Shown here piece after piece: positions 5,772 to 46,687 of a stretch of DNA of 55,766 nt. The notes beneath the pieces were generated by a model. It searched no databases and was not told the DNA's origin. It saw only the letters and a program-made list of their open reading frames with translations. A program made the position numbers and the translations under genes. Location of the stretch: contig CAYSUC010000001.1 of assembly GCA_964433865.1 (NCBI GenBank), forward strand, positions 1 through 55,766, read 5' to 3'. This DNA is from an uncultured Planctomycetaceae bacterium (GTDB lineage: Bacteria > Planctomycetota > Planctomycetia > Pirellulales > PNKZ01). How positions within the stretch are numbered: position 1 is the stretch's first letter; each line of letters opens with the position of its first letter.

Positions 5772-6705
5772 GCGGGCGTTCGGTCCGGCCGGGGCGGGAC
5801 CGCACATGCGGGCGTTCCCCGCAGACTTCTTAGTCTAGCATTTTCCCGAGAATTGCAACCCGCCGCGCAGGCGATTTCCCAAGGCCGCTCAAACATTGAG
5901 GATGCCGAGTCGGTTGCCGCGAGGAGTTTCGGCTCGGAAGGCGCTTTCTCGGCGGGGCGGCAGTCGCGGCTAGGTCGAGGGTGCGGAGCAAGTTCACGAT
6001 GCCCTCGTGCAGACAACTCGGGGCTTGCGGTGCGGTTCCGCAAATGCGGCCACCGCCGTCGACCACACGCGGTTCGCCGATCGTCACCAGGGTCTCGACC
6101 TTCGCCTGACCGGCGTCGAACCGGTTCGCGTGGTCAACGAACTGCCGGCGTGACGCCGTTCGGCGCCCTGCGGCGGCTCGCGCGCCGCCGACGCCTCGGC
6201 CGATTCCGTTGCAACGAATTAACGTGTTTATCCATCAAGAGTTAATTCATTGCATTGCATTGCATACACACCCCGGATCGCCGGCCCGACCGCGCCGGCC
6301 GCGGCTTGGGTAGTCGCCGCAATCGACGATCGGCTAGGGCTTTACAACGCCGGCCGAAAATCGCTTTGACAAATCCCCCCGGGCGCGGCACACTCCCCCT
6401 TCGCACGGCGGCGGTTTCCGAATCGAGTGTATTTCACCGCGACTCGCGGAGTTCTCGATTCGCAAATCCGCGGCGCGCCGCCGGCGCCAGAAGGTCTTCG
6501 TTCGCCCGACGGGGGTTTTCCATGAATCGCTTGACGACGTTTCTCGATCGCTACTTCGCCGTTTCGCCACAAGCCTTCCACTTGCGAGCCCGCTCTCGGC
6601 GATTCACCCTCTCTCAGGCTCCAATCGCTACTCTGCGAGGATCGAGCCCGATCTTGGCGATCATCCGCGCTTCGGTCCTACATCCATCGAAGGGAACACA
6701 GTTCC

Positions 6706-35984: not shown

Positions 35985-36635
35985 TTACAGATGACAATTC
36001 GACAGGCCGCGCTTTTCCAGGTACTGCTGGTGGTACTCTTCGGCCCGATGAAACTCGGCGGCCGGCACGATCTGCGTTACGATCGGTCGGCCCCAGCGGT
36101 TGCTTTCACCCAACGCTCGCTTGGCCGCTTCGGCCGTATCCCGCTGCGCGTCGTCGTGGTAGAACACCGCCGACCGGTACTGCGAACCGACGTCGGGCCC
36201 CTGGCGGTTGAGCGTCGTGGGATTGTGATTGGCGAAGAAGACGTCGACCAGTTGCGCGTAGGAAATCCGCTCGGGATCGAACTCTACCTGCACCGCTTCG
36301 GCGTGGCCCGTGTTGCGGTAGCAAACGTCTTCATAGGTGGGGGCTTGCGTCGCGCCGCCGGTGTAGCCGACGCTGGTGGCGACGACCCCCGGCAGTTTGC
36401 GAAACACGGCCTCGACGCCCCAAAAACAGCCCGCTCCGAACGTGGCCTTTTCGACGCGGCCGCTCTTCAACTCGGCGATCCGATCGGCGTTCATGCTCGT
36501 TTGCTCCGGGGTACGAACGGGGACCGAGGCGGGATTCGACCGGCCGTAGCCGGTCCAACCGTACAGGGCCGCACTGGCCGCCGCAATCGCCGCCGCCGCC
36601 GTCACTAGGTCGCCGAGACCGCTGCGTCGCTTCAT
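35985..36635 (-). CDS. msrA: peptide-methionine (S)-S-oxide reductase MsrA (membrane/secreted form)
   Basis: ATG 36635 follows ggagg. The catalytic block is ATFGAGCFWGVEAVFRKLPGVVATSVGYTGG, with ..GHAEAVQVEFDP.. also present. An N-terminal hydrophobic segment is present. Confidence 0.9.
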   Translation of the reverse strand: MKRRSGLGDLVTAAAAIAAASAALYGWTGYGRSNPASVPVRTPEQTSMNADRIAELKSGRVEKATFGAGCFWGVEAVFRKLPGVVATSVGYTGGATQAPTYEDVCYRNTGHAEAVQVEFDPERISYAQLVDVFFANHNPTTLNRQGPDVGSQYRSAVFYHDDAQRDTAEAAKRALGESNRWGRPIVTQIVPAAEFHRAEEYHQQYLEKRGLSNCHL

Positions 36636-36755
36636 GGTTCGCACCTCCGAAGCGGCGAGTCGACGCAACTTCGGTGCCCATTGCCGCGATCGTTCGGCCA
36701 CGTCCTCGTCGGCCGGGGCCGAGGGTCCGTTCTTCGGCGAAATCCGCAGGCGCCG

Positions 36756-38654
36756 TCAACCCGCGACCGCTGCCGCCCTGCGCGGCTTTCTCCGTTCTAC
36801 GTTCGCACCGGCGCGCCGGTTCGCGCGCGGTGTGACATTCGGTGCCGTGCTCCGCTGGGGCAGCGTGCGAGCGTTGCGCGCCTCGTCGTCCGCCGGATGG
36901 CACCAATTGAACGCCGTCGGCGACTTCGCCAACAGTCGCATTTGCAGGGCCAGCAGGTCGACGAACGACCCGGCCGCCGGGCCAACCGCGACGCGGACGT
37001 CGCCCGACCGATCGAAGGCCCGCAGCCGCTGCGGCTTCAGCAGTTGCCCCACCCGCTCGCGGAGCCGCGAGGCGACGCCGACGTACAGCCGGGTCCCCTC
37101 GTTGTCGAAGATCGCGAACAGGCCCGGCCCGTTCGGCAAGGCGCGGAGTCGGGCCGGTTTTTGCGCCGAAACGGGTACTTCGAACCGCAACTCGACGTGG
37201 GGCAGTTCCTCGGCCCGGCGCCGCACGGCCTTGGCCTCCTTGCGTAACTTCAGCGCCGTCCAGCGATGCTCGAAGACGCGACGTCCGCCGAAGCGGGCCG
37301 CTTGCTTGTCGAACTCCGCGGCCCGCGCGGGATCGGCCAAGACGTCGTCGAACCCGTCGCTCGCGCGGCCGCGGGTCGCCAAGGCGGCGGCGATCTCGGC
37401 GGCGGCGGCGAACGGCTCCGCGTCATCCCACGTCAGTTCGGTCCGCTCGGTCGTCGGCACGCTCGTCAGCCGGCCGGCTTTCCGCAGCCGCAGCAGCGCG
37501 GCGTTCCAGGCGTGCAGATCGCCGGGAAGGCGCAGCTCGCGGCAATGTTCGGCCAACGCGGTCTGCAACTTCGGATCGGCCACGACCCGGTCGAGCGAGT
37601 ACCCGCCGCAAGCCCGGCGAAAGGCCTCGACCAGCGGCGCGTGCGGATCGACCGGCGGCGCGGGTTCGGCCTCCGCCGCCTCGACGACCGCCGGCGAGGT
37701 CGCGATCGTTGCAGGGATCGCCTCGGGCGCGATCGGCTCCTGCGCGGGCGCGATCCGTTCGGCGACGGCGTCCGCCGCCGTCGGTTCGCCGTTCGACGTC
37801 GGCGTCGCCGGAGCGCTGCGCGTCGGATCGGCCGAGCCTACCAGCGGCTCGCCCACTTGGGCCGCGGCCAGACGTTCCGATCCGCGGCGGGCATAATCCG
37901 TCGACAGTTCGAAACCGAGGTACTGCCGGCCCAGCTTCTTCGCCGTGACCAACGTCGTCGCGCTGCCGGAGAACGGATCGAGCACGACGTCTCCTTCGTG
38001 CGAGCAGGTGCGAATGATCCGCCCCAGCAATTGTTCGGGCATTTGACAGCCGTGGAACCCGGCCCGCTCTTTGAACGTTCCGGCGACGCGAGGAAAGTAC
38101 CACGTGTCTTCCTCGACCGTGAAGCAGTCCGACAGATCCTGCGGCCGCAGGATCCAGGTGTCGTCGGGCAGTCGGCCGCGCGGATTGGCCCGGGCGTCGT
38201 TGTAGACCAACTGTCGGGCCGAGGGGATGCGGTTGGCCGGATCGTCGGCGCGGAACGTGAACGACTTCGCATCCTTCACGAAGTAGAACAGATGCGCATG
38301 CGAGCGCGTGAACTTGTTTACGCAATTGACGCCGAACGTGTAGTACCACACGACCCAACTACGGCAGGTGAAGCCGATCTGCTGGGCGCTGAGCTTCAAT
38401 TCCGCGGCATACTCGTCGCCGATGGCCAACCAGAACGTGCCGTCGGGCTTCAACAGCCGATGCACGGCCCGCATCCACTGCTCCGACCAGTCGAGGTAGT
38501 GTTCGCGTTCGCGTCGATCGTCGTACTCGTCGTACTTGTAGCCGATGTTGAACGGCGGATCGGCGAACGCCAGATCGACGATGCCGGCGGGCAGGGCGTT
38601 CATTCCGGCGACGCAATCGGAGTGATGGATGCGGTTCAGAACGTCGGGCGACAT
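36756..38654 (-). CDS. beta-class (N6-adenine/N4-cytosine) DNA methyltransferase fused to a C-terminal UvrC-like GIY-YIG domain
   Basis: ATG 38654 follows ggagg. Motif IV (FADPPFNIGYKY) precedes motif I (VLDPFSGSATTLVTAKKLGRQYLGFE). A Pro/Ala linker and two similar helical modules follow. The C-terminal domain (about 36900-37145) reads LPNGPGLFAIFDNEGTRLYVGVASRLRERVGQLL ... VDLLALQMRLLAKSPTAFNW. Confidence 0.75.
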   Translation of the reverse strand: MSPDVLNRIHHSDCVAGMNALPAGIVDLAFADPPFNIGYKYDEYDDRREREHYLDWSEQWMRAVHRLLKPDGTFWLAIGDEYAAELKLSAQQIGFTCRSWVVWYYTFGVNCVNKFTRSHAHLFYFVKDAKSFTFRADDPANRIPSARQLVYNDARANPRGRLPDDTWILRPQDLSDCFTVEEDTWYFPRVAGTFKERAGFHGCQMPEQLLGRIIRTCSHEGDVVLDPFSGSATTLVTAKKLGRQYLGFELSTDYARRGSERLAAAQVGEPLVGSADPTRSAPATPTSNGEPTAADAVAERIAPAQEPIAPEAIPATIATSPAVVEAAEAEPAPPVDPHAPLVEAFRRACGGYSLDRVVADPKLQTALAEHCRELRLPGDLHAWNAALLRLRKAGRLTSVPTTERTELTWDDAEPFAAAAEIAAALATRGRASDGFDDVLADPARAAEFDKQAARFGGRRVFEHRWTALKLRKEAKAVRRRAEELPHVELRFEVPVSAQKPARLRALPNGPGLFAIFDNEGTRLYVGVASRLRERVGQLLKPQRLRAFDRSGDVRVAVGPAAGSFVDLLALQMRLLAKSPTAFNWCHPADDEARNARTLPQRSTAPNVTPRANRRAGANVERRKPRRAAAVAG

Positions 38655-38873
38655 ACGGACGACCTCCGGCAACGATCGGCGACGGAACGGATGGGGCGAT
38701 TCTAGCGCATCGACGACGGCTCGCAAGCGCGCCGCATGCGAATCGGTGCCAGGTGCCACTGGTCAGCGCAGTCGACCAGTGCTCGTACGACACCGCCTCC
38801 CGAACGCCCGGGTCGACGTCGCTGACCCGGGGCACCCGTTTCTAAACGGGTCGACTTCGCCGCCCGGGGCACG

Positions 38874-39473: not shown

Positions 39474-39677
39474 CGAGGCATCTCGAAACGTGTGCGGTCC
39501 GGTCGCGGTTCGGCCGGCGAAACTCGCGATTTTACCCGGCTTCCGCCGACGCGGCCGGCCCTAAACGGGGTGCGGGTCCGCGGCGCCGGCCGATCTGCGC
39601 TCGTCGGTGGTTCTTGCCCTCGTCGCCTCTGCTATGATGCACCGCGCCGGCGGGGGCGAGGCTTCCAGGAGGCGCCG

Positions 39678-40163
39678 ATGTCCGAATCCGAAAACGATCA
39701 ATTCTCGTGGCGCGATACCTACTTCGTTTGGTTCGCATCGTCGCGTAGGCCGACGATGGCCGAAGTCGAGAAGGTGCTCCGCGCGTTGCCCGACAAGTAC
39801 GGCGTCGAACACCCGGAGCAGGACGATGCCGGACGGTTCGAGTCGATCACGCTGCAATCGCCGCTGGATCATGCGGTGCTCGAGGTGTCGTACCTGGAAG
39901 GGCCCGACATTCGCGAGCAAGCTCAGACGCTGGCCGAAGAGTTGAAGGCGGCCGGCGATTGCGAACCCGCGCAGCTTCACCGCTTGGCGCAGTGCGACGC
40001 CCGCTTCGACGTCATGCAGTTCGAGCGACTCGAAACGGGCGACGACGATGAAGATCTGGAAGATGAAATGTTCGATCCCAGTGCGCTGCTGGTCGTCATG
40101 CAGGCGCTGACGAAGCTCGTCGGCGGCATCGGCGTCGATCCGCAGTCGGGCCTGATGGTGTAG
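39678..40163 (+). CDS. hypothetical acidic cytoplasmic protein
   Basis: ATG 39678 follows ccaggagg. The 161-aa product starts MSESENDQFSWRDTYFVWF.. and has an acidic patch GDDDEDLEDEM. No family recognised. Confidence 0.55.
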   Translation: MSESENDQFSWRDTYFVWFASSRRPTMAEVEKVLRALPDKYGVEHPEQDDAGRFESITLQSPLDHAVLEVSYLEGPDIREQAQTLAEELKAAGDCEPAQLHRLAQCDARFDVMQFERLETGDDDEDLEDEMFDPSALLVVMQALTKLVGGIGVDPQSGLMV

Positions 40164-45058: not shown

Positions 45059-46687
45059 TCAGTCGGCGGTTCCCAAGAGCGATGCCTCGACGCGCCGCAG
45101 CGCCTCTTCGAACCGGCACCGACCGGCGACGGTCTCCGAGGCTTCACCGTCGGTCAGCCACTCGGTCACCTTGCGCTGCGCCGAGATGACCGTGCTGTGA
45201 CTGCGGCCGCCGAAGTAGCGGCCGATCTCGCTCAGCGCGGCCCGCGTGTACTTCCGCGCCAGCCACATGGCCAACATCCGCGGCCGAACGACGTCCTTCG
45301 CTTTCCGCGACGATTGCAGCGTCTGCTGCTCCAGTCCGAACACGTCGCACACGGCTCGTTCGATGTCGGTCAGGCGGACCGTCTTCCGCCGATTGCGCAG
45401 CAGTTCTTCGAGCGCCTCCTCGGCCATCGCACGGTCGATCTTCCGATCGAAGGCCCGGCTGACCGCGACCAGCCGCTTCAGCGCGCCGATCAGTTCGCGC
45501 GGATCGCCGGGAAACGAGGCGGCCACGTACTCGCCGACGTCGGCCGCCAGATTCAAACCCAGCTTCTTGGCGACCTGGGCGACGATGCCGACGCGCGTCG
45601 TCGCATCGGGTAGTTGCAGGTCGACGACCAGGCCGGCCGTCAGACGATTGCGCAGTTCGTTGCCCAAAAACGCCAACTCGGCGGGATGTCGGTCGGCGCT
45701 GACGACGATCTGACGACCGGCTCGCTGTAAGGCGTCGACCGTGTGGATGAATTCGACGAGCGTGGCCCGCTTGCCGGCGAAGAACTGCAAGTCGTCGACG
45801 ACGAGCAGGTGCAGTTCGCGAAACTTGCGGCGAAAGCTGGGGAGCCCGCCTCCCTGCAACCCTTCAAGAAAACTCGACGTGAATTGCTCGGCGGAGAGCA
45901 TCGTCGCCTGCACGTCGCGACCCAAGCGCCGCGCGGCCCCCGCGACCGCTTCGAGCAGATGCGTCTTGCCGACGCCGTGCGGCCCATGCACCACCAACGG
46001 CGACAGACTTCCCAACCGTTCGACCACGCCCAGCGCCGAGGCGTACGCCAGCCGATTCGTCGGCCCGACGACGAACTCATCGAACGTGGCGGGCCTGCGC
46101 GGGGCGGGCAGGTGCGAGGCAGGTCGAAACGTCGCCGGGCTCCCCGCCGGCGAACTCGGCAACGTCGAACTCGGCCGCGACGAGTTGCGTAACGCCGCAT
46201 CGTCCGCGCCGCGCCGCATCGTAAGAGGTTCGACCGTGCTCGAGTCGCCGAACCCGCGGTCGGGTGCGACGCCGGCCGCGGCGACCGTCGTCGGCCCGTC
46301 GAGCGCCGCATTCGTCGGCCCGCTCGCCACTCCCGTCGACCCGACTTCCGCAGAAACCGCGGACGGGTTCGTGGTACGGCGCACGGCGAGCGTCGGGTCG
46401 ACCTCGAAACTAACCGACGCGGCGGGCCCCAGCGTTTCGCAAGCGGCGGCTTCGATCGCCCGGCGAAAGTTCTTACGGAGCCAGTCCTGCAGAAAGGCGT
46501 TGGCGGTCTCGACGACGAGCCGTTCGCCGGAGGCGCGAAACCGCGTGGCGGCGCCGAACCACAGGTCGTAGCGCTCGCCGCCGATTCGGTCGGCCAGCGC
46601 GCGACGCACTGCCGGTACGATTTCCGTATCGTCGCTCTTCACGTCCTGCCGCTCCGCCACATCGTTGTGTCCGACCGGTTCCCGCAT
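45059..46687 (-). CDS. dnaA: chromosomal replication initiator protein DnaA
   Basis: The N-terminal domain I is ERYDLWF. The AAA+ Walker A is LVVHGPHGVGKTHLL and Walker B is LLVVDDLQF. The domain IV block reads MLAMWLARKYTRAALSEIGRYFGGRSHSTVISAQRKV. Confidence 0.93.
   Translation of the reverse strand: MREPVGHNDVAERQDVKSDDTEIVPAVRRALADRIGGERYDLWFGAATRFRASGERLVVETANAFLQDWLRKNFRRAIEAAACETLGPAASVSFEVDPTLAVRRTTNPSAVSAEVGSTGVASGPTNAALDGPTTVAAAGVAPDRGFGDSSTVEPLTMRRGADDAALRNSSRPSSTLPSSPAGSPATFRPASHLPAPRRPATFDEFVVGPTNRLAYASALGVVERLGSLSPLVVHGPHGVGKTHLLEAVAGAARRLGRDVQATMLSAEQFTSSFLEGLQGGGLPSFRRKFRELHLLVVDDLQFFAGKRATLVEFIHTVDALQRAGRQIVVSADRHPAELAFLGNELRNRLTAGLVVDLQLPDATTRVGIVAQVAKKLGLNLAADVGEYVAASFPGDPRELIGALKRLVAVSRAFDRKIDRAMAEEALEELLRNRRKTVRLTDIERAVCDVFGLEQQTLQSSRKAKDVVRPRMLAMWLARKYTRAALSEIGRYFGGRSHSTVISAQRKVTEWLTDGEASETVAGRCRFEEALRRVEASLLGTAD

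Follow-up and report, generated by a model that had tools for sequence, protein, structure and literature searches.

The gene described here lies in a 55,766-nucleotide stretch of DNA from an uncultured Planctomycetaceae bacterium (contig CAYSUC010000001.1, hereafter the window), and it encodes a DNA methyltransferase that is followed by a helical domain and by a GIY-YIG nuclease fold with an apparently disabled active site. It occupies positions 36756-38654(-) of the window as a single uninterrupted open reading frame (ORF) of 632 amino acids, with an ATG at 38654 and a TGA at 36756-36758. An in-frame GTG at 38759 would give 35 extra residues; these are absent from the closest homologue (P0002, 631 amino acids, 94% identity), and the start at ATG 38654 agrees both with the start of P0002 and with the family alignment. 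The protein is made of four parts, namely a PF01555 methyltransferase and, behind it, a linker, a helical domain and a GIY-YIG fold, to which an Arg-rich end is added. In brief, the features are the following (dN/dS, ratio of nonsynonymous to synonymous substitution rates; pI, isoelectric point):

36756..38654, minus strand: whole gene, methyltransferase with a putative pseudo-nuclease tail (ORF translation; more than 120 full-length homologues at 50-94% identity).
37830..38654, minus strand: beta-class N6_N4 DNA methyltransferase domain, residues 1-275 (PF01555, PADLOC, CcrM structure, dN/dS 0.084).
38550-38561, minus strand: motif IV, DPPF, residues 32-35 (sequence).
37953-37973, minus strand: motif I, FSGSATT, residues 228-234 (sequence).
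37644..37829, minus strand: acidic Pro/Ala-rich linker, residues 276-337 (48% Pro+Ala, pI 4.05, dN/dS 1.05, poor family alignment).
37185..37643, minus strand: two-repeat all-helical domain, residues 338-490 (AlphaFold2, hhalign, dN/dS 0.112, pI 9.4).
36885..37184, minus strand: UvrC-type GIY-YIG fold with a predicted disabled active site, residues 491-590 (profile, AlphaFold2, Foldseek, dN/dS 0.117, pI 10.4).
36759..36884, minus strand: Arg-rich basic tail, residues 591-632 (11 Lys+Arg versus 2 Asp+Glu, pI 12, dN/dS 0.60).

The enzyme is a beta-class DNA methyltransferase. Indeed, motif IV precedes motif I, which is the circular permutation of the beta class, and residues 26-256 match Pfam PF01555 (N6_N4_Mtase) over positions 1-217 of the 221 of the profile (E 1.4e-49, 169.5 bits for a cut-off of 26.7). 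The type II methylase models of PADLOC are matched as well, up to E 2.7e-53 (MTase_II), and among solved structures CcrM comes first (6pbd, E 1.4e-26), ahead of 8urk (an unnamed methyltransferase), M.MboIIA and M.RsrI. With the CcrM equivalog NF050803, only stretches of the catalytic core align, and the score of 109.7 bits falls short of the cut-off of 830. The pI of residues 1-275 is 6.1. An Asp in motif IV favours N6-adenine over N4-cytosine as the methylated base, without being proof of it; since motif IV starts with Asp here, the enzyme is most likely N6-adenine specific. In motif I, the second Gly of F-x-G-x-G is an Ala (FSGSATT), as in at least 90% of the fused family, and the relatives at loci L007 and L008 retain GSGTT. 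Over the whole genome, CAGCTG, GTGCAC, CTGCAG and AAGCTT are depleted (observed/expected ratios, O/E, of 0.22, 0.36, 0.40 and 0.47, with a maximal-order Markov expectation) and GANTC is not (O/E 0.95). A target motif guessed from the depletion of CAGCTG, GTGCAC and CTGCAG was rejected, as nothing ties this depletion to the methylase; the depleted A-containing palindromes may reflect past or present restriction systems.

Profile and structure prediction agree in assigning a GIY-YIG fold, and a UvrC-like one, to the C-terminal segment. Taken as a single sequence, it matches PF01541 at E 0.045, below the gathering cut-off, and the UvrC models align only with its first 40 residues. PF01541 is matched by 38 of 63 full-length homologues, with a best E value of 2.6e-5, and a profile of the C-terminal domain made from 41 homologues retrieves the UvrC structures 1yd6 (E 2.8e-12) and 1ycz (E 2.5e-9) from the PDB over the whole domain length, followed by I-TevI, Slx1 and T4 EndoII. 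The AlphaFold2 model of the domain has a mean predicted local distance difference test (pLDDT) of 90.6 and a predicted template modelling score (pTM) of 0.80, and comprises a three-stranded sheet and helices; its top Foldseek matches in the PDB are 1yd6 and 1ycz (probability 1.00, template modelling (TM) score 0.66-0.72), and the next are R.Eco29kI, T4 EndoII and PD-T4-3.

To compare the active sites, 68 fused homologues, 3 stand-alone paralogues (presented below) and 2 UvrC sequences were placed on a common profile. Each signature below gives eight diagnostic positions from left to right, namely the GIY Tyr, the YIG Tyr, the YIG Gly, and UvrC K32, R39, Y43 (I-TevI H31), E76 and N88:

UvrC: Y Y G K R Y E N
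Intact stand-alone paralogues: Y Y G E R H E N
This protein: F Y G V R L Q N

The key residues are thus F513 (GIY Tyr), Y524 and G526 (YIG), R534, L538 (UvrC Y43 / I-TevI H31), Q571 (catalytic Glu) and N583. The HMMER alignment places a consensus Gln in front of the catalytic Glu of the UvrC motif LILEmnLIKK, 12 residues ahead of the conserved Asn, and in this protein the residue is Q571 (codon CAA, 36942-36944). In UvrC, the catalytic metal has E76 as its only protein ligand, and the E76A replacement abolishes 3' incision. The metal-binding Glu (UvrC E76, Eco29kI E142, I-TevI E75) is missing here, and its replacement is a family trait rather than a private mutation, the position being Q in 49, A in 10, R in 6, L in 1 and E in 2 of the 68 fused homologues (non-Glu in 66). 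Two further active-site residues are changed in this protein: the GIY Tyr is a Phe (GIY reads GLF; Tyr in 61 of 68 homologues), and the equivalent of UvrC Tyr43 is a Leu (Q in 43, L in 18, H in 6 and F in 1 of the fused homologues). The YIG motif is present as LYVG, R534 is kept in 61 and N583 in 65 of the 68. According to PDB titles, 3mx4 is the 'inactive variant E142Q' of R.Eco29kI in a DNA-binding study, and the inactive EndoII E118A was used in DNA-complex work. With Gln at the position of the Glu, the domain would be a structural but not a catalytic member of the GIY-YIG superfamily, and on its aligned residues it is predicted to be catalytically disabled.

Selection was estimated by the Nei-Gojobori method from one pair of sequences with few substitutions, the window gene and its 94%-identical relative, and dN/dS amounts to 0.084 in the methylase core, 1.05 in the linker, 0.112 in the helical domain, 0.117 in the GIY-YIG-like domain and 0.60 in the basic tail. 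The linker evolves neutrally. The GIY-YIG domain, predicted to be dead, is under purifying selection, about as strong as that on the methylase core, without a partner nuclease in the lineage.

The helical repeats, and not the GIY-YIG fold, are the best-conserved portion of the tail. The AlphaFold2 model of this domain (pLDDT 91.9) is all-helical, with eight helices, and the domain is a true internal repeat, as a profile-profile hhalign comparison of its halves gives a probability of 94.4% (E 8.9e-8, 45 columns); each repeat carries S-x-DR..DP and LRK motifs, and 24 columns are invariant in 22 sequences that are 41-63% identical to the domain of this protein. No family match was found in Pfam, NCBIfam or PADLOC, and a Foldseek search with the fold returned nothing below E 1 (the lowest E was 1.1 with the PDB and 2.1 with BFVD). 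Homology to pentatricopeptide repeat (PPR) proteins was considered, since designer pentatricopeptide proteins appear at E 4.3e-7 in the profile search against the PDB, and was rejected: the score adds up eight matches of about 3 bits of one 33-residue hairpin to a synthetic repeat, with no single stretch significant, and Foldseek returns no PPR proteins for the domain. Against 1.84 billion representative proteins, the profile of the helical domain retrieves 674 proteins at E <= 0.001, 512 of them at E <= 1e-10. Among 109 sampled proteins, 32 match the methylase model and 30 match GIY-YIG, with no other recurrent partner, and three architectures are found: methylase fusions of about 560-640 amino acids, stand-alone proteins made of the helical domain and GIY-YIG (about 250-300 amino acids), and proteins with an unrelated N-terminal extension (about 310-430 amino acids). 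The helical domain is a candidate new nucleic-acid-binding domain. Proteins of the third type (e.g. G438:C37:1499-2224, G002:C80:1344-2090 and G318:C254:18439-19086) have the helical and a GIY-YIG-like domain and do not lie beside the methylase; several sit in genomes where the fused module was not found by the search, and Val, Lys or Arg takes the place of the catalytic Glu in several representatives, which indicates that the pseudo-nuclease module also exists on its own. As for the Arg-rich tail, it is present in a minority of homologues only, and the AT_hook model is matched weakly by two family members.

Most of this layout had been read from the bare sequence by the initial annotation, which described a single ORF with DPPF before FSGSATT in beta-class order, a Pro/Ala linker, two similar helical modules, a UvrC-type GIY-YIG C-terminus and, by hand alignment, a Glu-to-Gln change; all of these are recovered by the translation and by the profile, repeat and structure comparisons given above.

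Within its planctomycete order, the methylase gene is chromosomal and almost universal. Of 41 related genomes, 37 encode a methylase core at ortholog level (E < 1e-90, 61-86% identical in the catalytic domain), which makes an epigenetic or housekeeping role plausible. The named ones among the more than 120 full-length homologues come from metagenome-assembled genomes labelled Planctomycetia, Pirellulales or Pirellulaceae. Many orthologues in the 41 genomes are short (about 306-370 amino acids) and tail-less, one of them in a single-contig genome. In an even sample of the order, the tail module is present in 68 of 201 genomes, and in a sample of the phylum (251 genomes) it is confined to the same class, a second family of the class included. 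In a tree of the methylase core, the window gene falls in a clade of nine fused forms (Shimodaira-Hasegawa-like approximate likelihood ratio support of 99), two of which have a nuclease neighbour, and short and fused forms are interspersed with weak support. Counting gains and losses of the tail on this tree was abandoned, the support being too weak (parsimony gives 8 changes, and strongly supported branches force 1).

A stand-alone paralogue of 250-300 amino acids, with the same helical domain and a GIY-YIG domain, adjoins the fused methylase in 12 of the 68 module-bearing genomes (about 18%) and is missing from all 133 genomes that lack the module (Fisher p 1.1e-6, with no correction for phylogeny). 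At three loci (L008, L009 and L010), paralogue genes encoding 251-267 amino acids lie directly downstream of the methylase, the start of the one at L010 (251 amino acids) overlapping the methylase stop; their products score above the Pfam GIY-YIG cut-off and have the His and the Glu intact. Where the separate nuclease gene exists, the fused copy on the methylase is present as well. Identity amounts to 45-62% among the paralogues and falls to 30-45% between them and the fused modules, which indicates that the duplication is old. One of the 12 is interrupted by an in-frame TGA (L007, in G023:C59, about 1727-2311 of the locus) and looks like a nuclease in the process of loss. In the genome studied here, which is 90% complete, one copy of the helical domain was found, in this gene, and no second copy or paralogous GIY-YIG; the only other GIY-YIG match is a UvrC-like frame on contig C336. 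No cognate restriction endonuclease gene lies beside the methylase, whose neighbours are those of msrA and a HAD hydrolase, and the gene pair of a Type II restriction-modification (R-M) system is thus absent from the locus.

Among known systems, the protein would work most like CcrM, as a taxon-wide solitary methylase with a C-terminal helper domain. Dam and CcrM are known taxon-wide orphan methylases in bacterial epigenetic control, and the C-terminal extension of CcrM is required for DNA binding. The Caulobacter N6-adenine methylase CcrM (6pbd) and the present protein share the beta-class PF01555 domain, the DPPF/Y motif, a solitary and chromosomal gene, a taxon-wide occurrence and a C-terminal extension. 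However, the two are not orthologous, the extension found here (helical repeats and GIY-YIG) is unrelated to that of CcrM, the GANTC motif is not depleted in this genome, as stated above, and there is no evidence of cell-cycle control here. The N-terminal domain of UvrC/Cho (1yd6, 1ycz) has the same fold and is the closest relative in sequence and structure, with the YIG Tyr-x-Gly and the R39 and N88 positions kept, whereas E76 is replaced by Gln, Tyr43 by Leu, the GIY Tyr by Phe and Lys32 by Val; furthermore, the GIY-YIG domain stands here at the C-terminus of a methylase and lacks the UvrB-binding, Endo V-like and HhH domains behind it.

The likeness to GIY-YIG Type II R-M systems (Eco29kI, Cfr42I, Hpy188I) resides in the relatives, where the methylase gene is directly followed by a small intact GIY-YIG nuclease gene. 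In contrast to these systems, this genome has no such nuclease, and a copy of the nuclease, apparently dead, sits on the methylase; the extra domain of the relatives' nuclease is the N-terminal helical repeat instead of insertions in the catalytic core, and the family is chromosomally fixed across the order, whereas the R-M systems are sporadic. To our knowledge, the methylases of Eco29kI-type systems do not carry a dead nuclease copy. An engineered R-M fusion of Eco29kI exists (PMC3039593). In Lactobacillales, fusions of the Slx1 cluster join a COG4123-type NPPY methyltransferase to a Slx1-type GIY-YIG domain, have been interpreted as likely active in both modification and cleavage, and exist in parallel as a two-gene operon, which points to fusion as their origin (Dunin-Horkawicz et al. 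2006, PMC1564403). These proteins likewise have a Rossmann-fold amino-methyltransferase N-terminal to a GIY-YIG domain, but the present protein combines a beta-class PF01555 methylase with a UvrC-like, apparently inactivated GIY-YIG domain and has the helical repeat domain in between. The Slx1-type cases and DnmA-YeeC of B. subtilis were set aside as precedents, as they belong to different families. No description of this family or of a methylase/GIY-YIG fusion in Planctomycetes, and no planctomycete methylome assigning this enzyme, was found in the searchable literature.

We consider it probable that the protein is an orphan beta-class methylase, descended from a methylase-nuclease pair, whose pseudo-nuclease module has been retained for binding to DNA or for targeting. 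The C-terminal half would be a diverged paralogue of the small nuclease, with its two-repeat helical domain and UvrC-type GIY-YIG domain, that lost the catalytic residues and was nevertheless selectively maintained. The C-terminal parts are basic (pI 9.4 for the helical domain, 10.4 for the GIY-YIG-like domain and 12 for the tail), and because the module is basic and resembles the engineered E-to-Q GIY-YIG variants crystallised on DNA, it may well bind nucleic acids. It could tether or direct the methylase on DNA, as the C-terminal domain of CcrM aids DNA binding. In the ancestral two-gene form, both proteins would have carried the same helical domain, and the tail would have brought the methylase to the sites read by its sister nuclease. 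Here the nuclease would have been lost, and the enzyme would now be solitary, probably an epigenetic or housekeeping methylase. Since the nuclease is found strictly together with the fused form, the dead copy may well have a part in protection or control in those genomes that have the nuclease.

A further proposal, which we hold tentatively, is that the helical domain is a DNA-reading module not described before that was copied from the GIY-YIG nuclease onto its methylase, so that the dead replica delivers the methylase to the cut sites as a form of antidote targeting; in lineages such as this one the nuclease would have been lost, and the replica kept to position a solitary, order-wide epigenetic methylase. 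Planctomycetia appear to own a taxon-wide orphan methylase of the Dam/CcrM kind. The tail would be a natural pseudo-nuclease, in which the GIY-YIG shape and several active-site residues are kept and the metal ligand is lost, and which is still under selection. The live paralogue with the same helical domain, found only beside the fused form, could be a natural example of matched methylase-nuclease targeting.

Several observations weigh against a maintained, inactive targeting module. In the same order, many orthologues are tail-less and about 310-340 amino acids long, and the methylase tree shows them mixed with fused forms; the tail is thus dispensable for methylation as such. The catalytic and target-recognition region of these orthologues is conserved to an equal degree, so that the sequence specificity of the methylase does not come from the tail, whose contribution is more likely one of affinity, processivity or site choice. 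Tyr524, Arg534 and Asn583 are strongly conserved and the Glu is kept in two family members, which leaves room for residual or altered chemistry. Moreover, the dN/dS values come from one sequence pair, with four amino-acid changes in the GIY-YIG-like domain, and the 90% completeness of the assembly means that a partner nuclease could lie on a missing contig.

The alternatives differ in what they make of the same tail. It may be a functionless relic of a decayed R-M pair on its way to loss, the methylase being the sole working part; this would agree with the abundance of short orthologues interspersed with the fused ones, with the badly degenerated fused copy at L008, and with the Pfam scores, as the cut-off is exceeded by the stand-alone GIY-YIG copies and missed by the fused one. 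We find it rather unlikely, since both tail domains have dN/dS values of 0.11-0.12 as against about 1 in the linker, the 24 columns of the helical domain are invariant at 41-63% identity, and 68 of 201 genomes of the order, as well as a second family of the class, still have the module. It is unlikely, too, that the tail acts mainly by protein-protein contact rather than by binding DNA, pairing with the live nuclease or with itself and so controlling cleavage or dimerising the methylase. Regulation of live subunits by dead paralogous ones is common, and some GIY-YIG restriction enzymes act as dimers; the nuclease occurs only alongside the fused methylase (12 of 12), and the Eco29kI structures among the Foldseek matches contain several chains. 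Yet this genome and most of the module-bearing ones (56 of 68) lack the partner nuclease while the module is under selection, and the module has a strongly basic character, its Arg/Lys motifs (LRK, RW..LKLRK) being conserved.

Of the two possibilities raised by the initial annotation, an inactivated GIY-YIG fold used as a DNA-binding or targeting module is the one that the fold, the lost Glu, the two additional changes, the basic character and the purifying selection speak for. The other, an active single-chain methyltransferase-nuclease (a Type IIC/IIG-like R-M enzyme or a repair nickase) in which the Gln or a nearby acidic residue replaces the Glu, finds no support and is very improbable. 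It would make use of an intact and confidently modelled fold under purifying selection, of the conserved Tyr524, Gly526, Arg534 and Asn583, and of a near-invariant acidic residue (D/E566) five residues ahead of Q571. However, D/E566 aligns with the first Glu of the UvrC EAllLE block, which we take not to be a metal ligand, and 66 of 68 fused homologues have Q, A, R or L in place of the Glu, the Ala and Arg variants showing that the residue is not kept as a metal ligand. This protein has, in addition, Phe at the GIY Tyr and Leu at UvrC Tyr43 / I-TevI His31, and the intact paralogues, which keep the His and the Glu, show the active form of the lineage. The E-to-Q variant of Eco29kI and the E-to-A variant of T4 EndoII were deposited as inactive mutants, as stated in the PDB titles. 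Lastly, an assembly or frameshift artefact joining the methylase to a separate small gene has a negligible probability. The assembly is fragmented (797 contigs) and a related separate gene does follow the methylase in some relatives, but a survey of the distribution of the fusion, as the initial annotation had proposed, found the same architecture in the more than 120 homologues, single-contig genomes among them; the 94%-identical gene, with the same length and neighbours, was assembled independently in three metagenomes, and the methylase keeps its fused copy where the separate gene exists. The recurrent architecture and the independent assemblies effectively refute an artefact.

The surroundings of the gene are those reported initially, with the PMSR (msrA) gene downstream, the HAD hydrolase gene upstream, no restriction endonuclease gene adjacent, and a Bac_DnaA domain at 45620-46090(-), about 7 kb away; the wider neighbourhood consists of ordinary metabolic genes and includes BatA/VWA, ThuA and zinc-dehydrogenase genes. 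It is conserved only in the 94%-identical relative, and in the next-closest relative (66% identity) a histidine kinase and an ammonium transporter gene flank the methylase instead. The proximity of dnaA was therefore discarded as a functional clue, and the cell-cycle role once proposed from it is not supported as stated.

Other features of the window were noted. The msrA ORF as listed (35985-36701(-)) has a PMSR domain only from residue 85, and its N-terminal part contains a hydrophobic stretch, so that the product is possibly exported or anchored in the membrane, or else translation may start further downstream than listed; msrA of the 94%-identical relative is called at 216 amino acids. An acidic protein of 162 amino acids (39675-40163(+)), without a Pfam family, is encoded between the HAD hydrolase and ThuA genes, and a counterpart of 161 amino acids, also without a Pfam match, has the same place in the 94%-identical relative. 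Between positions 6000 and 16000, the G+C content is 0.59-0.65 over about 10 kb, versus 0.66-0.70 in the rest of the window, and this region is possibly an acquired island. Finally, a second Bac_DnaA frame is encoded outside the window in this genome (C55:4123-4497(-), 402 amino acids, 68.8 bits), and it may be a DnaA paralogue or a Hda-like protein.

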